DNA of 64,000 bases, taken from NCBI GenBank assembly GCA_951812955.1, contig OX638340.1, forward strand, positions 576,001 through 640,000, in the 5' to 3' direction. Within the stretch, counting starts at the first letter, position 1; every line of letters starts with the position of its first letter. The translations under genes and the position numbers were made by a program. The notes beneath the pieces were generated by a model. The model worked only from the letters and a program-made list of their open reading frames with translations. It made no database searches and was not told the origin of the DNA. Origin of the DNA: an uncultured Gemmatimonadota bacterium (lineage in GTDB: Bacteria; JAAXHH01). Positions 51,676-64,000 of the stretch are shown here, piece by piece.

Positions 51676-52758
51676 ATGCCCAAGAAACTGGATGTACGCA
51701 TGATACCCGGCACCCGTTCCGTCGACGCGCTGACTGGCGAAGGCTATTTCCCTGTCATCACCTGTCTGGGTGGCAATGAACTGCTCCTGGCCTACCGGGC
51801 CGGCGCAGCGCACATGGGCCTGGGCGGCCGGCTGGACGTGAGACGGTCGGTCGACGGGGGCCTTAACTGGACTGCGCCTGTGACCGTGGCCGACAGCGAA
51901 AGGGACGACCGTAACCCCGCGCTGGGTCTGGCGCCGGACGGTACGCTTGTACTGGCCTATCACTGGCAGGGGTCCTACGATGACGAAGGCGCATGGAAAC
52001 TGGAATTGGGCAGGGCCGATACTCGGGTCGTATTCTCCGAGGATGGCGGCCATACCTGGACCGGTGACGAGCTCATCGATTTCACTCCGATCAACGGCGC
52101 CTCGCCCTTCGGCAAGATCTTCACGGTAGACGGCGTCATGCACATGCTGATCTATGGCGGTTCGCCCTGCTGCGAGGCCGGATCTGGAACGGTCAGGGTC
52201 GGGCCGGCTTCGACGCCGACGTACATCCTCAGATCCAGGGACAACGGGCGATCCTGGGGGGATCCCACGCTGGTCGCACTGGGACTCAACGAATCGGACG
52301 CAGCCATCCTACCCGACGGCCGCTGGCTCTTCGTCGCCCGTTCCGAGGACCGCGCCGAACAGGCGCTTTATGCCTGCGTTTCTGAGGACGGCGGGTACAC
52401 ATGGCGCAACGTGGGACGGGTCACGGACGCAAAGGAACATCCGCCGGACATCACCCTGATGTCCAACGGATGGCTGCTGCTGCTCTTCGGGCGACGGCAT
52501 CCTCCCTTCGGCGTGGAGGGCCTGATCAGCCGGGACGGCGGGATGACCTGGGATGATCGAAGACTGGTTCTGGACGACTCCCTGCCCGGCGGCGACATCG
52601 GTTATCCCTCCACTGCCCGCCTCGAAGACGGTCGTCTGGTTACCGCCTATTACACCGCGGGAACAGCGGAGAGAAAGTGGGAGATGTTCCGTGCCGCAGA
52701 CGTAGCATGCAAGGTCGTGTCTTACGACGAGTCCAGCCTTATTGATCACTGGAGCTAA
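51676..52758 (+). CDS. BNR-repeat (sialidase-like beta-propeller) protein, no signal peptide
   Basis: Five Asp-box motifs: 'SVDGGLNWT', 'SEDGGHTWT', 'SRDNGRSWG', 'SEDGGYTWR' and 'SRDGGMTWD'. Confidence 0.7.
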   Translation: MPKKLDVRMIPGTRSVDALTGEGYFPVITCLGGNELLLAYRAGAAHMGLGGRLDVRRSVDGGLNWTAPVTVADSERDDRNPALGLAPDGTLVLAYHWQGSYDDEGAWKLELGRADTRVVFSEDGGHTWTGDELIDFTPINGASPFGKIFTVDGVMHMLIYGGSPCCEAGSGTVRVGPASTPTYILRSRDNGRSWGDPTLVALGLNESDAAILPDGRWLFVARSEDRAEQALYACVSEDGGYTWRNVGRVTDAKEHPPDITLMSNGWLLLLFGRRHPPFGVEGLISRDGGMTWDDRRLVLDDSLPGGDIGYPSTARLEDGRLVTAYYTAGTAERKWEMFRAADVACKVVSYDESSLIDHWS

Positions 52759-52806
52759 ATATCGTAATGCGCTGTCCAAGAGCAGGTTACGTATCAGGAA
52801 CCTTGT

Positions 52807-53937
52807 GTGAGACTCGTTGATTCCGGTGAAATCCGCGACGGCCGTGCCATCCCGGATCACCGCAGGAACTGCGCCTTCACCACCATCAACAGGCTGAACG
52901 ACGGCACGATCCTCGTTTCAGGCCGGTGGGGAACGGCGCGGGATTCGGTGGACGGGCACGCCTGCATCTGGGCCACGTCGGACACCGGCCGTACCTGGCG
53001 CCTTCGATATGACGGAAACGGGAAGGGGACTTGGGACGGAACAGCGGGTGAAGTCAAGGGACTGACGAGTACGGAGCTGTCCCCAGGCACGCTCACGGCG
53101 ACGGCCCTGTGGGTCGACCGTTCCAATCCGGATCTTCCTTTCATCCATCCGGAAACGCAGGGCCTGCTGCCCATGCGCATCATGCACGTCGACTCGGGGG
53201 ACGGTGGCCGCACATGGGGTCCGCCGCGCCGAATGGACACAACGCCCCACCTCGCCGCTTCCCCCTGTTCACACCATATCATCCGGTTGTCCGGCGGTAC
53301 CCTTGTCCAGCCCTACGAACAGTGGAAGGAATACGGGGACACGTCGCCGGGCCGGCCCGCCGCGAGGCTGCGGTTATCACGGGACGGTGGGCGTAGCTGG
53401 CCGGATTTCGTCACCGTGGCCCGGCATCCGGACAACAAGCTCGCCTACTGGGACCAGCGGCTGGCTGTCCATCCCGTTGACGGCCGCCTGGCCGCCACCT
53501 TCTGGACCCACGATTTCGATGCGGGCGTCGACATCGACATCCATATCGCCTACGGGTCGCCGGACGGCCGTGCGTGGACGATCCCCCGCGGCACCGGACT
53601 TCCCGGCCAGCACTGCCAGCCCCTCGCCCTTGGTGGGGATCGCCTGCTGGCCGCTTATCCGCGACGCGGGGATCCTCCCGGCATCGTGCTTTCCATCAGC
53701 GAGGATTTCGGCGAAAGCTGGGACCGGAGCCGGGATCTCCTAGTCTACGACAGCATCGCCGGCAATGAGTCCGGATCCCGCGGCAGCCGTACGCAGTCCG
53801 AATTGTGGGGTGACATGGAGCGCTGGCGCTTCGGACATCCCCGGATGGTGCGATTGCCGGACGACGAGGTGTTCGTCGTCTACTACGCGGGAGATGATGC
53901 CGTCAAGACCGCGCGGTGGGCGAGGGTCCGCGTTTAG
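52807..53937 (+). CDS. BNR-repeat (sialidase-like) protein, paralog, no signal peptide
   Basis: GTG start. Asp-boxes 'SDTGRTWR', 'SGDGGRTWG', 'SRDGGRSWP', 'SPDGRAWT' and 'SEDFGESWD'. Confidence 0.7.
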   Translation: MRLVDSGEIRDGRAIPDHRRNCAFTTINRLNDGTILVSGRWGTARDSVDGHACIWATSDTGRTWRLRYDGNGKGTWDGTAGEVKGLTSTELSPGTLTATALWVDRSNPDLPFIHPETQGLLPMRIMHVDSGDGGRTWGPPRRMDTTPHLAASPCSHHIIRLSGGTLVQPYEQWKEYGDTSPGRPAARLRLSRDGGRSWPDFVTVARHPDNKLAYWDQRLAVHPVDGRLAATFWTHDFDAGVDIDIHIAYGSPDGRAWTIPRGTGLPGQHCQPLALGGDRLLAAYPRRGDPPGIVLSISEDFGESWDRSRDLLVYDSIAGNESGSRGSRTQSELWGDMERWRFGHPRMVRLPDDEVFVVYYAGDDAVKTARWARVRV

Positions 53938-54072: not shown

Positions 54073-55263
54073 TCAGCCCCTCACATCCCGCCAGGGACGA
54101 ACCATAATCCGCTCGAAACCTGCCGGATCGATGTCCACGCCGAGTCCCGGGCCCGGTGGTACCGCCACGCAGCCGTCCTCATCCAACACAAAAGGCTCGG
54201 CGAAATAACCCTTGCCGATGAACGTCCGCCCATCCTCGCGCCAGCAATTCACTTCATTGTGTTCCTGGACCAGGAAGTTCGACGCGCAGGCGTCGATCTG
54301 AATGGATGCGGCGAGGGCCAGCGGGCTTAAGGGGCAGTGCAGGGCGAGTTTCGCATAGGCGCTTTCACCCATCACCGCGATCTTGTGACACTCGGTGATG
54401 CCGCCGGCGTGGCACAGGTCCGGCTGCATCACGGACAGGGCGTTCTTGCGCAGGGCGTCGTAGAAGATCCACTTGCCCATCCAACGTTCGCCGGCTGCGA
54501 TAGGGATTTCGCTGTTGCGCGCGATGTCCGCGAGCACGTCGACCCGTTCCACGGGCATGGGTTCCTCGATGAACAGGGGCCGGTGCGGCGTCAGGGCCGA
54601 TATCATCTGTTTGGCCATCACGGGGTGTGGATTATGGATATCCACGGCCACTTCCACATCGGGCCCGGCGCCCCTGCGCACGGCGGCGAAGGCTTCGGCG
54701 ATCCGCTCCACCTCCGAGGTGGGTTCCAGTCCGGTGCCCATGCCCACGTGCAGCTTCATGCACCGGAAGCCCCACTCCTCGACAATGACCCTGGCCGCCT
54801 CCTCATGCGCCCCGGGAAAATCCACGTCCGGGTCATACGAAGGATGATAACCCGCGTCGTAGGGCTGCCCGGGTTCCACGTACCAGGGCAGTTGTCCCCC
54901 CACAGCGCGGTACATGCGTATCCGGTCGCGGCAGGCTCCGCCAAGCATGGCATGGACCGGAAGCCCTGCGGCTTTGCCGGCAAGGTCCCAGAGCGCCATG
55001 TCGATTCCGCTGATCGCGCTCATCTTCACCGGTCCGCCGACATATCCCGAACCGCCCTCGTACATGGTATGCCAGAGCGACTCGACGCGGCAGGGGTCTT
55101 TCCCGACAAGCAACGGCTCCAGGCGCCGCACCTCGGCGATGACGCTTTCCGGGTGGTTTTCCAGGTAGGGTTCGCCCCAGCCGAACAGTTCGGTGTCCGT
55201 GTGGATCTTCAGCCATACCCAACTCGGCGGAACGCGCAGGATTTCGAAGTGAGTGATTCGCAT
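54073..55263 (-). CDS. enolase-superfamily dehydratase (D-galactonate/mandelate-racemase-like, DgoD-type)
   Basis: 'MRITHFEILRVPPSWVWLKIHTDTELFGWGEP' is the typical DgoD N-terminus. 'KLHVGMG' and 'EEP' metal-ligand regions. Confidence 0.8.
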   Translation of the reverse strand: MRITHFEILRVPPSWVWLKIHTDTELFGWGEPYLENHPESVIAEVRRLEPLLVGKDPCRVESLWHTMYEGGSGYVGGPVKMSAISGIDMALWDLAGKAAGLPVHAMLGGACRDRIRMYRAVGGQLPWYVEPGQPYDAGYHPSYDPDVDFPGAHEEAARVIVEEWGFRCMKLHVGMGTGLEPTSEVERIAEAFAAVRRGAGPDVEVAVDIHNPHPVMAKQMISALTPHRPLFIEEPMPVERVDVLADIARNSEIPIAAGERWMGKWIFYDALRKNALSVMQPDLCHAGGITECHKIAVMGESAYAKLALHCPLSPLALAASIQIDACASNFLVQEHNEVNCWREDGRTFIGKGYFAEPFVLDEDGCVAVPPGPGLGVDIDPAGFERIMVRPWRDVRG

Positions 55264-55340
55264 GCTCGGCTTTGCTCCCTGTTCTTGATGGCATCATGTT
55301 CTGACGGTATCACAAATCGTGCAATGGCCAGGACGCCTAC

Positions 55341-56318
55341 CTATCGGCCATAGACCGTCTGGATCATCGCACGGATGTAGCCGTTCGCGTAGGCCTTGCC
55401 TGCCGGACCAGCCATTGATTGGGGGAAGCCCGGTGTGTGGTCCATGCCGAAGGGGCCGCTGTACCCGTTATCGCGGTAGGTTTCCATGGCCCGGCGCATA
55501 TCCACTTCGCCCTCGTCGATGAAAACCTCCGCGAACCTCGGCAGCCGGCCTCTGACGTTCCGGAAATGGACCAGGGCGATCTTTTTCCGGGAGGCCATCT
55601 CGGCGATGATATGGTAGACGTCCTGTGGACCCGCCAGTTCGGTCATGCAACCCTGGCAGAAGAGCATCCTGTGATATGCGCTGGGTACCGCGTCGAAAAT
55701 CCGGCGGAAATGCTCCACCGTGGAGCAGATCTGCGCGACGCCGCCCAGAGGCTCCGGTATGGGCGGGTCGTCCGGGTGGAGCGCCAGGTTTACCCCGGCC
55801 TTTTCGGCCGCCGGGACCGCGGCGCGCATGAAGGCGACCATGTTGTCCCACATCACCTCGGCCGAGACGGGCGGCTCGTGGGGCTGCGGGCGGCTCCGGT
55901 CGAATTCGGCATAATCGAAGGTACTGTACACCGCGCCGCCGCGGCCGATGTCGGAAATGGTGCGGAAGTTGCCCATGGGCTTGAAATTCCAGGCCAGGGT
56001 CGGTATCCCTGCCTTGCCCAGGCATTCGATAAGCCGGACGAAAGCGCCCAGTTCTTCGTCCCGTTCCGCCGTGGCCAGCGTGATCCCCTCCAGGACCGGC
56101 ATGAAGACGGTCTGCAGTTTCAGCCCATGGGACTCGGTCTTTTCCCGGGCCTGTTCGAAAAGCTCGGTACTGTCTTTGCCCGCACGAACGTGCCGTTCCG
56201 CTTCGACCTTCCCTCCGGTCCTCAGGTCCAGCTGGATCATGTCCACGCTGATCGCGCGATAGAAACTAAGGGTCTCGTCGTTGAAATCGGACCAGTTTAC
56301 GACATCATGCAGGTACAT
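55341..56318 (-). CDS. uxuA: mannonate dehydratase (UxuA family)
   Basis: 325-aa xylose-isomerase-like TIM barrel. Overall UxuA-like layout. Adjacent to the DgoD-like dehydratase and HpcH aldolase. The N-terminus is less certain. Confidence 0.65.
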   Translation of the reverse strand: MYLHDVVNWSDFNDETLSFYRAISVDMIQLDLRTGGKVEAERHVRAGKDSTELFEQAREKTESHGLKLQTVFMPVLEGITLATAERDEELGAFVRLIECLGKAGIPTLAWNFKPMGNFRTISDIGRGGAVYSTFDYAEFDRSRPQPHEPPVSAEVMWDNMVAFMRAAVPAAEKAGVNLALHPDDPPIPEPLGGVAQICSTVEHFRRIFDAVPSAYHRMLFCQGCMTELAGPQDVYHIIAEMASRKKIALVHFRNVRGRLPRFAEVFIDEGEVDMRRAMETYRDNGYSGPFGMDHTPGFPQSMAGPAGKAYANGYIRAMIQTVYGR

Positions 56319-56381
56319 CGATCGCCTCCAATGCTGGCGCTACGGGTTGGACGACTTCCGCTTCGACCTGACCTACGGGAT

Positions 56382-56427
56382 GGTGATCTGGTGATCTGGT
56401 GATCTGGTGATCTGGTGATCTGGTGAT
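56382..56427. repeat. perfect 8-bp tandem repeat (GGTGATCT) x about 5.7
   Basis: Read directly: 'ggtgatctggtgatctggtgatctggtgatctggtgatctggtgata'. Starts 64 bp upstream of the uxuA start codon, in the uxuA/HpcH divergent intergenic region. Confidence 0.95.
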
Positions 56428-56531
56428 AAGATAACCCCCCGGGCCAGTGCAGCAATTCGAAAATCGATCAGACACCACGTATATCCATATTGGGCTAACG
56501 CAAAGCGGAATCATGTATTATAATCGGTAGT

Positions 56532-56615
56532 CCGGCGCACCCGTAGGCATAGCGCATCCATAGGCTAAGCGCATCCGTAGACTGAGCGCATCCGTAAGCC
56601 GGCGCATCCGAATAT
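56532..56615. promoter_or_regulatory. about five imperfect tandem copies of a 17-bp unit (consensus AGCGCATCCGTAGRCTR)
   Basis: 'ccggcgcacccgtaggcat agcgcatccataggcta agcgcatccgtagactg agcgcatccgtaagccg gcgcatccgaatatcg'. Lies between uxuA (minus) and the HpcH aldolase (plus). Candidate iterated regulator binding sites. Confidence 0.6.
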
Positions 56616-56687
56616 CGCGTACGGAAACACGGAGTCAATCCCATCCCATTTCAATCTCGGCAGGCAAACGACACAGGAGCCCTTCCA

Positions 56688-57413
56688 ATGGCGGAACGCA
56701 ACTTGAAACAGCGCATCGGCGCGGGAGAACAGGTCATCGGCGCTAACGTCGGCATGTCCCATACAAGGGAACAGCTTAAAAAGGTAGTAGAGTCAGGTGA
56801 GTACGACTTTCTCTGGGTAGACGGACAGCACAGCGCTTTCAGCGAAGACTCCCTGGTGGAATTCTGCGACAGGGCCGATGCGCTGGATGCCGACGTCATG
56901 TTCCGCATCAAGCACACGTTTCACAGCTACCTGGTCGGTAACCTGCTCGACCTTGGGCCCGCCGGGATCGAAGTGCCCCAGGTCGAATTGGAATCAACGG
57001 TGGATGAGGCGGTCGACTTCTTCTACTATCCTCAGCAGGGCATGCGGAGCTGGGGAGGCGGAGCGCGGCGTAAAGTGGATGAACAGGGCGGCGACCGGCT
57101 GGGCTATGCCGAGTGGTGGAACAACTACGGCGTGCTGATGATGCAGCTTGAATCGATACCCGCGGTGACAGGTGCGCGGAGACTGGCCAAAGCGGGGGTA
57201 GACTGCCTGTCCTTCGGTCCAAACGATCTCATGTACAGTATCGAGGCCCATCCGCACCATCCGTTCCGCGACGTGGACGATTGCGTTCGCCACGTGGTCG
57301 AACAGCTCGCCGGTTCCGGTACGAGGGTGTGTTTCCGGAACCACCCGGCCAGCATGCGGCAGCGGTACGTTGACATGGGTGTAACGGTGTTTCTGGAGAG
57401 TCCGTCGCTGTAG
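56688..57413 (+). CDS. HpcH/HpaI-family 2-keto-3-deoxy-acid aldolase
   Basis: 241 aa. 'GANVGMSHTREQLKK...DFLWVDGQHS' and '...GVDCLSFGPNDL' are HpcH/citrate-lyase-beta-like motifs. AGGAG RBS. Confidence 0.75.
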   Translation: MAERNLKQRIGAGEQVIGANVGMSHTREQLKKVVESGEYDFLWVDGQHSAFSEDSLVEFCDRADALDADVMFRIKHTFHSYLVGNLLDLGPAGIEVPQVELESTVDEAVDFFYYPQQGMRSWGGGARRKVDEQGGDRLGYAEWWNNYGVLMMQLESIPAVTGARRLAKAGVDCLSFGPNDLMYSIEAHPHHPFRDVDDCVRHVVEQLAGSGTRVCFRNHPASMRQRYVDMGVTVFLESPSL

Positions 57414-57486
57414 AGGCTGCCGCCAGATAGAATTTGCCGATGCCGGCGGAGTTTTTCCCATTGCGGACGCGGTCCCCACGAATCTG

Positions 57487-59316
57487 TTATGCGCCGGGAC
57501 GCCCTCCGGCAATGTCGGATTTCGCATCGAAATCCAAAGACTGAGCCTCGTACATCTTCGCGAATAGACCACCCTGTTCTACCAGTTCCTTCGGCGTACC
57601 CGATTCGGCCAGTCGGCCCTCACTGATAACCAGGATGCGATCCGCGTGCCGGATCGTCGAGAGTCTGTGGGCGATGACCATGATGGTTCGGCCGGTCCTT
57701 GCCCGTTCGACGGCGATTCGGATCTCTTCTTCGGCCAGTGCATCCAGGGCCGAAGTGGCCTCGTCAAGCACGAGAATACAGGTCGAGGTCCGCATGAGCG
57801 CACGGGCCATGGCGATGCGTTGCTTTTCACCACCGGATAGCAGGATACCGTCTTCTCCCGCCTCGGTAGCGTACCCTTCCGGCAGATTCTCAACGAATTC
57901 GTGCAGTGCGGAAGAACGCGCGGCTCGCTCCACCGCCTCAATTTCATAGTCCGCAACGGGGTAAGCGATGTTGTCGGCAAGCGAAGCGTTCCACATGAAA
58001 ACATCCTGGGGCACGACGGCGATTCGCGACCTGAGAGAGGCCAGCGTCATCTCGCGTACATCCGTTCCGCCAATGGAAATGCTTCCGCTTTCTGGTTCCT
58101 GCATACGGGTCAGCAGGTCGATGATCGTGGTCTTCCCGCCGCCGCTCGGCCCCACGATGCCGACGAACTCACCCCCGTTGACCGTGAAGGAGAGATCTTT
58201 CACCTCGTATCCCCGTTCATAACTGAACCAAATGTCGGAAAACTCGATAGTCGGAGGCGTGATGTCGATCCGTTCCACCGGGCGTCCACGGCCGAATCCT
58301 TCCTCAGCGGGAAGCGCGAATAATCCGTCCAGGCTCTTCACGGAGACGTCGATGAGTTTTGTGCCGGTATAGGTCGCAATTACGGACCGCAACGCGGCGG
58401 AGGCTCTCGGCGTATAGGCCATGACGGCCACGAGACTGCCGATGGTGATATCACCGGCCATGGCCTGGAAAGCGCCATATCCGAGGAGGACGCCCAGGAC
58501 CAGTCCGCTGATCACTTCGTTCGGAAAGTTGAGCACGATATCGTGGAGGGCCGCACCACGCATCTTAACCCGGGCGTGTTTTTCTAATAGCCCCCCACAT
58601 CGCTTCCTGGTATGCGTTTCCCCATTGAACAGGCGTATCGTACGAAACGCGCCGACCATCTCGTAGAGGAAGCTCTCGACGGCCTTGCTCTGTTCGTTCG
58701 AACGGCGGTCCATTTCCTTCGAGTACCTGGACAGGAACCGGGTGGCCAGGTACGTCGCCGGCATCGCGACACAGAAAATCACCGCGAGTTCGACATTTAG
58801 CAGGAACACCATGATCAGCGTCCCCGCCAGCATGATCGAGCTTGTAAAGACGGGGAGCAGTTCCTGCGCGATGTACATCTCGCCGATCCGGCCGGTATCC
58901 CGCGTAACGCGAAAGACGATGTTCCCCCTGGGGATCTTTTCCAGGGCGTCCAGCCTGACATGCAGAAGGTGGTTCAGGACCGCCTTGCGCAGGGCAAGGG
59001 TAACCGACGCACCGATGCGGACCCGCAGATGTCCCTGTACGTAGGAGAAAGCGATCGCCACCAGCGGCGTGGCGACCATGGCCACCAGCAGTCTCCACGC
59101 CAGTGTTGTATCCGACTCCGGGATCGCCGTGTCGAAGAGCATTTTGAAGAACAGGGGCTGGATCAGCATGACCGCTGATCCAGCGAGCATCATGATAACC
59201 GCGGCGCCAATAGTATACTTATGTTGATACAGCGTCTGCCGAACGACTTTGGCGGCATGTGCCACCGGTTCTTTGTTCCTGTGGACTCGATTGGCTTTCC
59301 GATCGTCTGATGGCAT
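57487..59316 (-). CDS. ABC exporter, fused permease-ATPase (MsbA/type-I exporter fold)
   Basis: 6 TM, then NBD with 'GPSGGGKTT', 'LSGGEKQRIAMARAL' and 'ILVLDEATSALD'. Confidence 0.85.
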   Translation of the reverse strand: MPSDDRKANRVHRNKEPVAHAAKVVRQTLYQHKYTIGAAVIMMLAGSAVMLIQPLFFKMLFDTAIPESDTTLAWRLLVAMVATPLVAIAFSYVQGHLRVRIGASVTLALRKAVLNHLLHVRLDALEKIPRGNIVFRVTRDTGRIGEMYIAQELLPVFTSSIMLAGTLIMVFLLNVELAVIFCVAMPATYLATRFLSRYSKEMDRRSNEQSKAVESFLYEMVGAFRTIRLFNGETHTRKRCGGLLEKHARVKMRGAALHDIVLNFPNEVISGLVLGVLLGYGAFQAMAGDITIGSLVAVMAYTPRASAALRSVIATYTGTKLIDVSVKSLDGLFALPAEEGFGRGRPVERIDITPPTIEFSDIWFSYERGYEVKDLSFTVNGGEFVGIVGPSGGGKTTIIDLLTRMQEPESGSISIGGTDVREMTLASLRSRIAVVPQDVFMWNASLADNIAYPVADYEIEAVERAARSSALHEFVENLPEGYATEAGEDGILLSGGEKQRIAMARALMRTSTCILVLDEATSALDALAEEEIRIAVERARTGRTIMVIAHRLSTIRHADRILVISEGRLAESGTPKELVEQGGLFAKMYEAQSLDFDAKSDIAGGRPGA

Positions 59317-59470
59317 GCCCTCGCTCTCCTATGGTCGTCGATTCTCACCAGTAGAGTACGAAATCGTACACGGACAGGGATCGTTCCGGCAGATTCCACA
59401 AAAAGGCAAAGCCCCCGGCGGCATTTACCACCGGGGGCCTGGATCTGCATACCTCTGGAGCGACCTGCGT

Positions 59471-60742
59471 CTATCCCTGCCCCGATCCGCCGAGGACGTC
59501 TTCCAACTCGTTCACGAACACCTCGAGTTCGTCCGGCTTCCCGATGGTTACCCGCAGGTGATTGCTCAGGAGATTGATCTCCCTCGTCCGGTACCCGGAA
59601 CCGCCCCGTACCATCACGCCGCGTTCCATAAGCGCGGAGCCCATGCGGCGGCTGTCCCGCTTGACGTCCACGATCATGTAATTGCCGTGGCTCGGTGTGT
59701 ATGCCAGTCCCAGACGGTCGAATTCGGCGGACAGGTAGTCCTTGCCGTCGCTCACGACCTCTTTCGTACGGGCTACGAATTCGTGATCGTCCAGGGCCGC
59801 GAGGGCCGCGTGCATGCCCAGGGTGCTCAGTCCGCCGCCGAAGAACCCCATGTGCGCCATCAGCATATCCATCATGCGCTGGCTGCCGATCGCGTACCCG
59901 ATTCGCATGCCGGCCAAGCCGTAGATCTTGGAAAAAGTACGGGCGACGACCACATTGTCTCGCTCCAGGGCGAGTTTCGCGGCATCCCGGTAGTCCGGAT
60001 CCCGGACGAAGTGGATGTAGGCCTCGTCGATGAGGACGATGGCCTGCGCTGGCGCCGCGTCTACGAGGGACACCAGGTCCTCGTAGGGCACGATCGTTCC
60101 CGTGGGATTGTTGGGATTGGTGACGACGATCAGGGATGTTCTTGGAGTGATTGCCGCCTTCATGGCGTCGAGGTCGTGAACGAAGTCAGCCGTCGTGGGA
60201 ACGCGGACGGTACTGACGTCCTTGCCCATCATCTGATAGGTTTGAAAACCACGCGCGACCGATCCATAACCCGGGACCGCCTCGATGCACTCCCCGCCAT
60301 TGCTCGCGGCTATTACGGCCAGCGCCTGTAGTATCGGACCGGAACCAGGCGTGACCATTACCCGGTTCAACTCCCTGAAACGCATGAATGACCGCATGTC
60401 GCTAAAGCTCAGTTCGAAATCCTCGACACCCGGAACGCCGTGTAATTTGTTGAGACGAACGGGCAGATCGACACCGAAATCGTACCGGTTGATCTTGTGC
60501 AGGTTTTCGGCAATGGCCGCAACGGCGCGTGGCGAAGCGCCCAGGGGATTCTCGTTGGCTCCAATCTGGACCCGGCCCGGTTCCACGCCGTATCCGCGGA
60601 CGTCGCCGGCCTTCTTACCGGTCGCCATGGCCTGCGCGATCTCCCAGGCCGAACCTGAGGCGAGGGCGCCGGCACCCAGCAGGGCGCCTTTCATGAATCG
60701 ACGCCGCGTAAACCCGTTTTTTAATACACTCCCGAAACCCAT
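59471..60742 (-). CDS. Tat-signal-peptide-bearing class-II PLP aminotransferase (HisC/histidinol-phosphate-aminotransferase-like)
   Basis: N-terminus 'GFTRRRFMKGALLGAGALASGSAWEIAQA' has a twin-arginine motif, an h-region and AxA. 'GANENPLG', 'TNPNNPTG' and 'SKIYGLAGMRIGY' (PLP-Lys box). GGAGG RBS at start 'MGFGS'. Confidence 0.8.
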   Translation of the reverse strand: MGFGSVLKNGFTRRRFMKGALLGAGALASGSAWEIAQAMATGKKAGDVRGYGVEPGRVQIGANENPLGASPRAVAAIAENLHKINRYDFGVDLPVRLNKLHGVPGVEDFELSFSDMRSFMRFRELNRVMVTPGSGPILQALAVIAASNGGECIEAVPGYGSVARGFQTYQMMGKDVSTVRVPTTADFVHDLDAMKAAITPRTSLIVVTNPNNPTGTIVPYEDLVSLVDAAPAQAIVLIDEAYIHFVRDPDYRDAAKLALERDNVVVARTFSKIYGLAGMRIGYAIGSQRMMDMLMAHMGFFGGGLSTLGMHAALAALDDHEFVARTKEVVSDGKDYLSAEFDRLGLAYTPSHGNYMIVDVKRDSRRMGSALMERGVMVRGGSGYRTREINLLSNHLRVTIGKPDELEVFVNELEDVLGGSGQG

Positions 60743-60903
60743 GGTATGAACCTCCATTCAATGATTACTCGTAAATTGCATCGTATCTACAAAGTGTACA
60801 CCACCTAAGAGTCTGAACCTCCAACTAAAGATTGCCTGCGGATTTCCCACCATCCAAATGTGTAACGCCTGAATTCGAAACCTTATTTCGCTACCTTATT
60901 TCG

Positions 60904-62568
60904 TTACCTGATGTTGAGCCTTGCCATTTGCGTGACGATGTAGTCGGCGCAGCGGAACGCGAGCGCCTGTATGGTTAGCGTCGGGTTGCTCTTGCCGCTG
61001 GTGACGAAGGACGAACCGTCGACGATGAACAGGTTGTCCACGTCGTGGGCCTGGTTGAACTTGTTCACGACCGACGTCGCCGGATCGTTGCCCATTCGGC
61101 AAGTGCCCATGAGATGGGCGTCGCCATGGGGCACGAAATTCGGAGAGGCCACGATCCCATGGGCGCCGGCGGTGTCCAGCAGTTCGCGTGCGCGGTCCCG
61201 AAAGAAGTCGCCGAGTTTGTGCTCGTTCGGATGCACGTTGTACGTCACACGCGGTACCGGCAGGCCCCACTTGTCGTTTACGTCCGGGTCCAGGTCGATC
61301 ATGTTGGATTCCTGGGACATGGACTGCATGCTGGTAAGGGCGACCATGTACCGGGTGTAATTGTCCATGATCCATTTCTTGCGGCGGGCGCCCCACCTGC
61401 GGAGCCGGGGCATGTTCAGGTTGGCGAAGGAAATGGTTTCGCCGTCACCCCGCGGTTCCAGCACGCCTCCGCCGAAGAAACCGTACTTGTCCGGATCCGG
61501 GTCGTAGAAATCCTGGATAATGCGTGAATCCATGACGCCTTTGTACTCGTTGAGATCCTTTTCGTAGAATCCCCGGGCGGACTGGTAGTAGTTGAACATC
61601 AGGTGCCTTCCCACCTTGCCGCTGCTGTTGGCGAGGCCGTCCGGAAAGAGATTGGACTTCGACATGAGCAGCAGGCGCGGCGTATGGACGCCGTTACAGC
61701 AAACGATTACCGCGCGGGCTTCCAACCGGTGTTCACGCAGGTCTTTATCCAGATAGATCACTCCCTCGGCCCGGCCATCCTCGTCGACCACGATCTCCCG
61801 AACGCAGGCATCGGCCCGTATCTGGCAGTTGCCCGTCCTCAGCGCCTGGGGAATCATGGTAACCAGCATGCTGGACCGCGCGCCGATGGTACAGACGTAA
61901 CTTTCGCAGAAACCGCAATTCATGACCGGCGGCCGGCCTCCGTATTCCCGCGAGTTGATTGCCAGCGGCGCCGGATACGAGTGCCATCCCAGCTTCTGGG
62001 CGGCCATGTCTGCCAGGGCGCCCGAACTGGTTCGCGGCACCGGCGGCATGGGGTAGGGACGGCGTCGCGGCGGATCGAAGGGATTGGCGCCCGCCAGGCC
62101 GGATATCCCGACTTCGTATTCGGCCTTCTCGTAGTAATGTTCCAGGTCCCAGTAGTCGATGGGCCAGTCCTGCACGTCCGCGCCGTCCAGGTCGCCGAAA
62201 AGGCTTCTTTCCTTGAAATCGTTCTCGTGCAGCCGCCAGGAAATACCGGTGTAATGGAGCGTGCTGCCGCCCACCGTGCTTTGCATGTGAATCCCGTGAT
62301 CTTCAACGGCCTGATCGTCCGACGACTGCCGGTACGTATTGGGCTGATCGTGGCGATAGATGTTGGGATGGTCATGGTTATTGCTGGCGGGATGCATCGC
62401 CTGGAGTTCGTCCTGGTCGAAGTGGCGCGTCTTTTGAAATGATCCCATTTCCATGGCGACCACCTGCAGGCCCTTCGTGCTCAGTTCCTTGGCCATGACC
62501 GCGCCGGCGGCGCCTGTGCCGATGACGATGACGTCCGGTCGTCGAATCGTGGGATTGGGCAGGGACAT
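60904..62568 (-). CDS. GMC-family FAD-dependent oxidoreductase (no signal peptide)
   Basis: '[18 protein letters not shown]' FAD Rossmann at the N-terminus. Length and C-terminal region are GMC-like. Confidence 0.85.
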
Positions 62569-62581
62569 GGGGACTCCGAAA

Positions 62582-63262
62582 CTACGCTTCGCCGACGATT
62601 CTACTCTTCATCGGACCGTCATATGGCTTCCATTCGGGGTATTCGATCTCCGGAATGGTCATGTCGAATTCACTGAAAGGGGGATCGTAGCCAAAAGCCG
62701 CGCGACCTGGAAATCGGATCAGCTTCCATCCGGTCTCGCGATAGTTTCCGCCATAGGAGGGATCACTGAACATGCCCTCCATGGTATGCGTGACCAGCAT
62801 GCGCAGGAAATCCCTGGCGCCCATGGGGGCGTCGTCCGGCCAGTTCCGCGGGGACCTTGCACGGTCGATACCCATCAGGGCCCTGCGCTGATTTCTTGTA
62901 TCGAGATCCAGGAAGCCGGCTTCGTGCGAGAGCTGACAGTACCGGTCGAAAGCGGCCAGGCCGGAGACATAGGACTCCTTGTATTCGGCCCGGTGGCTGC
63001 CGAGGGCCCGGTCGATGTATACGATCACGCGGGCTTCCGCCGCACCGGGGTCGTTGTCGTCGGACGGCATGATCATCCGGGTCAGCGCGTCCACGGTACG
63101 GCCCTGGCGGGCGTCCAGGTTCTGCCAGGTGTATTCGAAGGGAGGTGTTTCCTGGGCGTCGATCGCACCGGTACGGGACAGCACGCCAAGTGTTATCACT
63201 CCACCGGTCGCCCGTGCGGTATTGGAAAGAAACGATCGGCGGGAAAACGGCTTTGACGTCAT
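62582..63262 (-). CDS. gluconate-2-dehydrogenase-subunit-3-family protein with Tat signal (small partner subunit of the GMC enzyme)
   Basis: 'MTSKPFSRRSFLSNTARATGGVITLGVLS' Tat motif. GGGAG RBS. Directly upstream of, and co-oriented with, the GMC gene. Confidence 0.7.
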   Translation of the reverse strand: MTSKPFSRRSFLSNTARATGGVITLGVLSRTGAIDAQETPPFEYTWQNLDARQGRTVDALTRMIMPSDDNDPGAAEARVIVYIDRALGSHRAEYKESYVSGLAAFDRYCQLSHEAGFLDLDTRNQRRALMGIDRARSPRNWPDDAPMGARDFLRMLVTHTMEGMFSDPSYGGNYRETGWKLIRFPGRAAFGYDPPFSEFDMTIPEIEYPEWKPYDGPMKSRIVGEA

Positions 63263-63460
63263 GGATTCCAGGCTCCCGACTCTATAGTTTCCATCGTTCG
63301 AATGCACATCAGGACTGTATACACATATCGCGTTGATTTATTCAATCTATCCGCTTCGAAAATACGGTTGAAAACCGGGTTGACAATAGAATTCGGCAGG
63401 GTTCTGATCGCGCGGGCAAAGAGGTTGACGGCAATACCCGCGAATCTATATTCATAAAGC

Positions 63461-64000
63461 ATGAACATTCTGAAGCCGCAGGCCCTCAAACCAGGTGATA
63501 CAATCGGGATCGTCGCACCGGCCAGCCATTCCGCGCTCCCGAGCGCGCTGCTGAACGGCCGCCGTTCACTCGAAGCCCTCGGATTCCACACGGTGACCGC
63601 ACCGCACCTGGCGGACAGGCACGGTTTTCTGGCCGGCCGGGACGCCGACCGCCTGGCCGACCTGGAAGGCATGTTCACCGATCCAGATATCCATGGAATC
63701 GTTTGCCTTCGCGGCGGATACGGGTCCGTCCGCATGCTGCAGCGCATGGATTTCGATATCGTCCGCACCAACCCCAAGGTCTTCGTCGGATACAGCGACA
63801 TAACCGCCCTCCATGGGGCAATCCATCAACGTACCGGCCTGGTCACCTTTTGGGGTCCCATGGTTGCCTCGGATATGAGTCCGGGTTTCCACCCATACAA
63901 CCGGGATGCCTTCATGAAGGCGGTTACAGGAGCCGATTCCATAGGCAGCATCGTGCATCCCGAGGACATGCCTCCCGTGCAGACCATTCATGGCGGCATG
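63461..64000 (+). CDS. LD-carboxypeptidase (peptidase S66, LdcA-like), N-terminal part (3' end lies outside the window)
   Basis: 'LKPGDTIGIVAPAS' and 'VGYSDITALH' (Ser nucleophile box). The ORF is open to the window end. Confidence 0.7.
   Translation, partial: MNILKPQALKPGDTIGIVAPASHSALPSALLNGRRSLEALGFHTVTAPHLADRHGFLAGRDADRLADLEGMFTDPDIHGIVCLRGGYGSVRMLQRMDFDIVRTNPKVFVGYSDITALHGAIHQRTGLVTFWGPMVASDMSPGFHPYNRDAFMKAVTGADSIGSIVHPEDMPPVQTIHGGM

Follow-up and report, generated by a model that had tools for sequence, protein, structure and literature searches.

Pyridoxal 5'-phosphate (PLP)-dependent transamination is treated as cytoplasmic chemistry. What, then, would an aminotransferase with an export signal do beside a respiratory-type flavoprotein dehydrogenase? 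The question is raised by three adjacent minus-strand genes (59471-63262) in a 64,000-nucleotide stretch of DNA from an uncultured Gemmatimonadota bacterium (contig OX638340.1, positions 576,001 to 640,000; hereafter the window). They encode a small subunit of the Gluconate_2-dh3 family, a GMC flavoprotein and a HisC-like PLP aminotransferase. We found that the three genes stay linked in relatives through one rearrangement and several changes of surroundings, and that the export motifs of the small subunit and the aminotransferase are conserved. On balance, the evidence tips slightly towards an operon of three genes by which two enzymes, cofactors already in place, reach the periplasm through twin-arginine translocation (Tat); there they would act consecutively on one substrate.

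Twin-arginine signals on either side of a signal-less dehydrogenase

The first gene encodes the small subunit (62582-63262, minus strand, as are all features of the trio; 226 amino acids; PF13618, E 4e-26). We placed its start at the ATG at 63262 (N-terminus MTSKPFSRRSFLSN) because a 100% identical 226-residue protein exists in the database. Its predicted twin-arginine signal peptide (63155-63262) spans roughly residues 1-36 (MTSKPFSRRSFLSNTARATGGVITLGVLSRTGAIDA), with an approximate cleavage site, and carries the motif SRRSFL. The third gene encodes the HisC/PtaA-like aminotransferase (59471-60742; 423 amino acids; PF00155, E 1e-47). Read from 60742, its N-terminus begins MGFGSVLKNGFTRRRFMKG and runs on to AQA, so that a TRRRFMK motif, a hydrophobic stretch and AQA make up a predicted twin-arginine signal peptide of residues 1-38 (60629-60742; MGFGSVLKNGFTRRRFMKGALLGAGALASGSAWEIAQA). 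The pattern [ST]RRx[FLIVM][LIVMF] occurs near the N-terminus of 2 of the 51 long open reading frames (ORFs) in the window, and these two are the small subunit and the aminotransferase.

Both motifs persist among distant homologues. An alignment of 19 aminotransferase homologues reaching down to 38% identity shows no variation at R13, R14 or F16, and each of the 24 homologues that we read (91% to 38% identity) starts with S/T-R-R-x-F-[LIVM] and continues into a hydrophobic stretch. For the small subunit, R8 is invariant and R9 nearly so among 22 homologues (down to 28% identity), and the motif is kept in all eight trio loci examined. Judged from these alignments, the Tat motifs are conserved far beyond the expectation for drift. 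Residues 1-30 of the aminotransferase lie outside the fold in its AlphaFold model, with a predicted local distance difference test score (pLDDT) below 50, and its signal is similar to the validated Tat signal of PA2531 (PMC6085387). We infer that both proteins are Tat substrates.

The original prediction, which read near-consensus twin-arginine signals on these two proteins, attached a caveat: a true aminotransferase start at a Met past the twin arginines. We rejected such a start because homologues have Ile, Leu or Val at the Met just after the motif. Both candidate starts lie upstream of the motif. The first ATG (60757) overlaps a Shine-Dalgarno GGAGG (60751-60755) that is invariant in the spacers of four loci; the second ATG (60742), 8 nt from this element, is its proper partner and the likely start.

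Between these two genes lies that of the GMC flavoprotein dehydrogenase (60904-62568; 554 amino acids; PF00732 and PF05199). Its ORF is the longest possible and starts 16 residues before the GxGxxG motif for flavin adenine dinucleotide (FAD) binding (GTGAAG, residues 17-22). Since this maximal ORF leaves no upstream extension, the protein has no signal peptide of its own, as had been predicted, and its orthologues are alike, all starting 15 to 20 residues before the motif (14 homologues and 8 loci). A signal-less GMC protein encoded directly after a Tat-signal PF13618 subunit is also the layout of the FAD-dependent glucose dehydrogenase (FAD-GDH) of B. cepacia, whose gamma subunit bears a Tat signal and is described as a hitch-hiker partner for export of the catalytic subunit (PMC6719666). 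In its gene layout, the locus fits the hitch-hiker architecture suggested earlier.

Boundaries of the unit

On the upstream side, the small subunit gene has a divergent neighbour for an LdcA-like S66 peptidase, which extends past the end of the window. Downstream, a strong intrinsic terminator (59409-59440; a 14-bp stem with 10 G-C pairs, then TTTGCCTTTTTG) lies 31 nt past the aminotransferase stop. Bounded by this divergent promoter region and terminator, the unit comprises three genes. A module of four co-oriented genes with short gaps, the last encoding an ABC exporter, had been proposed. The co-orientation is real, but the interval holds three genes, and the gap of 13 nt between the small subunit and GMC genes is followed by gaps of 161 nt between the GMC and aminotransferase genes and of 154 nt, with the terminator, between the aminotransferase and exporter genes.

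The spacer between the GMC and aminotransferase genes (60743-60903) opens with a 13-nt tandem unit, GGTAGCGAAATAA, present in two copies in the window versus three in the 98%-identical locus L086 (7827-8000). L087 and L081 have shorter spacers that lack this whole region, some 110 nt in length. An Rfam scan of 56000-64000 at E values up to 1 returned nothing, so this long spacer contains no known riboswitch.

The trio is a portable unit

We recovered related loci by a single-protein metagenome scan and exact-protein look-ups, and we describe each by the identity of its aminotransferase to that of the window. The trio was present in all nine distinct orthologue loci with both flanks readable (98% to 51% identity). 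The order small subunit, GMC, aminotransferase recurs in L086 (98%), L087 (95%), L081/L082 (80%), L083 (64%), the Zixibacteria-labelled L091 (58%), L168 (57%) and L166, from a Latescibacteria metagenome-assembled genome (51%). L088/L089 (63-64%) are arranged differently, with the aminotransferase first, then a monohaem cytochrome c and a NapC/NirT-type cytochrome (L088 9526-10606), the small subunit, the GMC protein and a c3-like multihaem cytochrome (L088 13275-14096). The window has none of these cytochromes. As a route to the quinone pool, they show that the dehydrogenase in L088/L089 is wired to the respiratory chain, and the gene order there means that the linkage survives rearrangement. 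The flanks of the trio also vary, falling into at least four unrelated contexts that include an S66 peptidase with a 2-hydroxyacid dehydrogenase, UvrC with DUF4153, and Nramp with Amidohydro_2. Given these varied flanks and the rearrangement, we conclude that the portable three-gene unit is real.

One locus, L084 (59%), has no GMC gene upstream of its aminotransferase. We rejected it as a counter-example: its upstream genes are of the L088 type, an arrangement that places the small-subunit and GMC genes downstream of the aminotransferase, and its contig ends 140 nt past the aminotransferase.

The linkage has an outer limit. Identity among GMC relatives drops abruptly from 66% to about 52%, and the representative at 52% (L167, Terriglobales-labelled) has a small subunit and a GMC gene with no aminotransferase. 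Aminotransferase paralogues at or below 46% identity keep the Tat signal and have no GMC gene nearby. By these comparisons, the link between dehydrogenase and aminotransferase is specific to one clade. A separate scan of a genome collection with the aminotransferase alignment found a GMC or small-subunit gene at 0 of 80 loci among the matches listed; these were mostly ordinary hisC and said little about orthologues.

A FAD dehydrogenase of the respiratory-complex type

The GMC protein matches two solved dehydrogenases over its full length, the alpha subunit of B. cepacia FAD-GDH (6a2u_B; E 4e-62, residues 8-545) and the large subunit of Gluconobacter fructose dehydrogenase (7w2j_A; E 6e-59). 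Aligned with the B. cepacia enzyme (BcGDH), the protein shares its covalent-FAD His and its catalytic His/Asn pair. These alignments place the protein in the FAD-dehydrogenase-complex family, with B. cepacia glucose dehydrogenase and fructose dehydrogenase. As in the complexes of this family (6A2U, 7W2J and gluconate 2-dehydrogenase), a small Tat subunit is encoded immediately upstream of a signal-less GMC protein. We detected no match, by sequence or by fold, between the small subunit here and the solved gamma subunit. The conserved third gene, for a Tat-exported aminotransferase, is a difference from those complexes.

In FAD-GDH-type complexes, a surface 3Fe-4S cluster feeds a multihaem cytochrome c subunit (PMC6719666). 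The window's GMC protein has a Cys-rich loop at the same position, with Cys218-x2-Cys221-x4-Cys226 (61891-61917) as candidate iron-sulfur (Fe-S) ligands. This C-x2-C-x4-C motif, which marks the subfamily, is invariant in 14 homologues down to 50% identity and differs from the C-x5-C-x3-C of BcGDH; two of its Cys align with Cys218 and Cys222 of that enzyme and the third is displaced. The motif may form an Fe-S site of altered geometry. A cytochrome c subunit, standard in the known complexes, is missing from the operon and the window and is present only in L088/L089.

The aminotransferase belongs to a large Tat-signal family

The aminotransferase has the fold and PLP-binding residues of HisC. 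The HisC structures are the top structural matches of its AlphaFold model (pLDDT 83.8), with a target-normalised template-modelling score of about 0.84, and D239, Y242, the PLP lysine K272, R280 and R397, the carboxylate/phosphate-binding residue, are all invariant in the 19-sequence alignment. Unlike HisC, it carries a conserved export signal, has no histidine operon around it, and scores below every NCBIfam cutoff: 228 bits against 444 for PRK09105, 223 against 276.55 for hisC (TIGR01141) and 170.6 against 500 for PtaA (NF051461). Among the structural matches, the phenylalanine aminotransferase Rv3772 comes nearest in sequence (33% identity). Our search listed 120 clusters of homologues, and as noted, all 24 sequences read carry the motif. 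Tat-signal HisC-like aminotransferases make up a sizeable family among uncultured bacteria of sea and soil. Of the homologues that carry a name, the nearest are labelled Gemmatimonadota for the small subunit (84%), Latescibacteria for the GMC protein (71%) and Zixibacteria (53-58%).

To our knowledge, PtaA is the only characterised periplasmic transaminase. PtaA, which is HisC-like, and PvdN are Tat-exported periplasmic PLP enzymes that cross the membrane folded and with PLP bound (PMC6206403), and PA2531, the PtaA of P. aeruginosa, is a validated Tat substrate (PMC6085387). An exported PLP enzyme, which the original prediction had offered as unusual, thus has precedents. The window's protein resembles PtaA of fluorescent pseudomonads in two respects: both are HisC-like PLP transaminases of fold type I, and both begin with a twin-arginine signal. 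It is not an orthologue, given its score, and its homologues occur in uncultured Gemmatimonadota-, Zixibacteria- or Latescibacteria-labelled bacteria. It also has no pyoverdine genes nearby; PtaA itself is said to lie mostly outside pyoverdine clusters (PMC6206403). Linkage to a dehydrogenase sets the window's protein further apart, and we found no such description for PtaA.

A proposed periplasmic pathway

We propose that the PF13618 small subunit would bind the folded GMC dehydrogenase in the cytoplasm, loaded with FAD and probably an Fe-S cluster, and that its twin-arginine signal would carry the dehydrogenase across the membrane. The HisC/PtaA-like aminotransferase would be exported separately, with PLP bound. 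Once in the periplasm, the dehydrogenase would turn a hydroxyl of a sugar-type substrate (a sugar, sugar acid or polyol) into a carbonyl and pass the electrons to the respiratory chain. The aminotransferase would then swap the carbonyl for an amino group. The dehydrogenase product would thereby serve as the amino acceptor that regenerates PLP from pyridoxamine 5'-phosphate (PMP).

Several observations weigh against this proposal. The aminotransferase has its own ribosome-binding site behind the 161-nt spacer, and in L088 two genes part it from the small subunit and GMC genes, so co-transcription can only be presumed. The motif CxxCH is absent from every long ORF of the 64-kb window and was likewise not found in the long ORFs of trio loci L081, L083, L086, L087, L091, L166 and L168; the electron acceptor for the window's dehydrogenase must be encoded elsewhere. 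In several lineages, paralogous Tat aminotransferases adjoin peptidases, not dehydrogenases, which hints at amino-acid or peptide substrates. Lastly, the substrates of HisC-type enzymes are alpha-amino acids or histidinol phosphate; we know of none that acts on keto-sugars or aminates sugar carbonyls.

Alternative explanations

The alternative that survives best is that the neighbours are functionally independent and simply co-inherited: an ordinary periplasmic sugar or sugar-acid dehydrogenase beside an aminotransferase that works on unrelated amino acids or peptide N-termini, much as PtaA acts on a glutamate residue. It would account for the surroundings of the GMC-less Tat paralogues, which adjoin M24, M28 or S15 peptidases, an Asp/Glu racemase or amidohydrolases, and for the LdcA-like S66 peptidase gene that is divergent from the trio in five loci. 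The separate ribosome-binding site and long spacer of the aminotransferase fit it too. Against it stands the adjacency in all nine informative loci, across at least four flank contexts and one internal rearrangement. The GMC clade (at least 66% identity) and the aminotransferase clade (at least 51%) moreover coincide and have diverged roughly in parallel. Linkage that outlasts rearrangement and changes of flank disfavours independent function, and we leave this explanation a minor share of the probability.

We think it improbable, though less so than the explanations below, that the locus serves amino-sugar catabolism. Here the GMC enzyme would oxidise an amino sugar such as glucosamine or galactosamine at C1 to a 2-amino-aldonate, from which the aminotransferase would remove the amino group to give a 2-keto-aldonate; this product would be imported and feed the neighbouring reductase, dehydratase, kinase and aldolase genes. 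The nearest solved GMC relative (6a2u_B) is an aldose C1 dehydrogenase, and a 2-amino-aldonate is an alpha-amino acid, the substrate class of HisC-type enzymes, in keeping with the invariant R397. Sugar-acid enzyme genes flank the window's trio and those of its closest relatives, and in L091 and L168 the gene immediately before the trio is an Amidohydro_2 gene, from a Pfam family that includes sugar lactonases. Only close relatives, however, have the sugar-acid flanks, which L166 and L168 lack, so that the case is one of context. A periplasmic keto-acid acceptor would still be required, and we know of no transaminase reaction of the amino-aldonate type.

The original prediction itself, that a glucoside 3-dehydrogenase makes a 3-keto-glycoside that the exported aminotransferase converts to a 3-amino-glycoside, now looks decidedly unlikely. 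The architecture fits, with a hitch-hiker small subunit, a signal-less GMC protein and an exported aminotransferase, and conversion of an alcohol by way of a carbonyl to an amine has an aminoglycoside-type precedent. In aminoglycoside biosynthesis, the GMC oxidase NeoQ and the aminotransferase NeoB turn an alcohol into an aldehyde and then an amine, and the window's pair shares both this two-step logic and the two enzyme superfamilies. It differs in lacking a biosynthetic cluster, in its predicted periplasmic location and in its respiratory-type dehydrogenase. The GMC subfamily differs as well, since 7dve (6'''-hydroxyparomomycin C oxidase) matches weakly and over the C-terminal domain only (E 1.6e-12). 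In the nearest solved GMC relatives, oxidation takes place at C1 (glucose) or C5 (fructose), and nothing groups the protein with 3-dehydrogenases over C1, C2 or C5 dehydrogenases. There are no glycosyl-transfer or antibiotic-biosynthesis genes nearby, and none of the sugar aminotransferases known to us is of HisC type. Both the assignment as a glucoside 3-dehydrogenase and the 3-amino-sugar chemistry thus find no support beyond the general architecture.

That the aminotransferase is an ordinary cytoplasmic HisC whose signal is an annotation artefact, as its fold and its 223 bits to TIGR01141 might suggest, can be set aside as highly improbable, given the sub-cutoff score, an N-terminal extension of 45-50 residues with RRxF invariant across several phyla, the lack of any conserved start codon past the twin arginines, and the separate signal-less HisC-like gene in related genomes (L096, L105 and L170).

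Neighbouring genes and paralogous loci

The ABC exporter gene (57487-59316) lies behind the terminator, converges on a plus-strand HpcH aldolase gene and looks monocistronic. Among the relatives, L086 and L090 (at least 84% identity) alone have it after the aminotransferase; L081, L083, L088/L089, L091, L166 and L168 do not have it. With the terminator in between and most relatives lacking it, we rejected it as a member of the module; conservation of gene order, anticipated for all four genes, holds for the trio (with the one rearrangement) and fails for the exporter. The encoded protein is an MsbA-like half-size exporter of 609 amino acids. Its gene and that of HpcH look like an insertion separating the aminotransferase gene from the UxuA-like gene, and neither occupies this position in the 80% relative L081.

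Sugar-acid catabolic genes adjoin the trio in the window (54073-57413). They include a galactonate dehydratase (NF010624, 345 bits, above the cutoff of 311), a UxuA / xylose-isomerase-like TIM barrel protein and the plus-strand HpcH-family aldolase. On the other flank of the trio, L081 and L086 have an ILVD_EDD sugar-acid dehydratase and a GhrB-like 2-hydroxyacid dehydrogenase, to which L081 adds a PfkB kinase. A pair of neighbouring ORFs further along the window (51676-53937; 360 and 376 amino acids) matches nothing in NCBIfam; in L081, the counterparts give Pfam hits to BNR_2 (sialidase-like propeller).

The aminotransferase paralogues at or below 46% identity adjoin pyrroloquinoline quinone (PQQ) quinohaemoprotein dehydrogenases, M24/M28/S15 peptidases, NHL proteins or tandem copies of themselves. 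One paralogous Tat HisC-like clade, about 40-45% identical to the window's protein (L092, L106, L112-L118 and L169), is labelled Woeseiaceae or Pseudomonadota where a label exists. Its conserved gene block encodes an M24-like peptidase, a PQQ quinohaemoprotein dehydrogenase and an NHL-repeat protein, joined in some sub-lineages by an M28 peptidase and in others by an amidohydrolase, and most of the products inspected have signal-peptide-like N-termini. Two or three Tat-signal aminotransferase paralogues stand in tandem in L097 (1836-5184), L101 and L130 (7932-10772). The 1.4-Mb contig that carries the L081 trio (ctg12612_74x_l) also appears, judged by a shared length of 1,408,301 bases, to hold a second Tat-signal aminotransferase paralogue (P0035, 45% identity). 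If it does, one genome would have several exported aminotransferases.

Implications for extracytoplasmic transamination

Searching the literature for periplasmic aminotransferases paired with GMC enzymes, we found no description of conserved genetic coupling, and searches on glucoside 3-dehydrogenase and NeoQ/NeoB gave nothing relevant. Nor did we find an account of how widely the Tat-HisC-like family extends among uncultured bacteria. Tat-exported PLP enzymes and hitch-hiker FAD dehydrogenases are each already known; this survey suggests that their conserved coupling is undescribed. For the FAD-dehydrogenase-complex family, which is of biosensor interest, the window adds a cytochrome-less three-gene form with a new partner.

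Returning to consecutive action by the two exported enzymes, a further step is conceivable, and we put it forward only tentatively: the trio may be a self-contained periplasmic module in which a respiratory dehydrogenase supplies the carbonyl to a Tat-exported transaminase, turning alcohols into amines, or removing amines should the reaction run the other way, outside the cytoplasm. If true, this would explain how PLP is regenerated from PMP in the periplasm, which was left unresolved for PtaA (PMC6206403). It would also mean that the hundreds of uncharacterised Tat HisC-like proteins in several bacterial phyla represent widespread, overlooked periplasmic transamination. With one clade of this family genetically locked to a hitch-hiker FAD dehydrogenase, the pairing offers a concrete two-enzyme system for extracytoplasmic oxidation and transamination.

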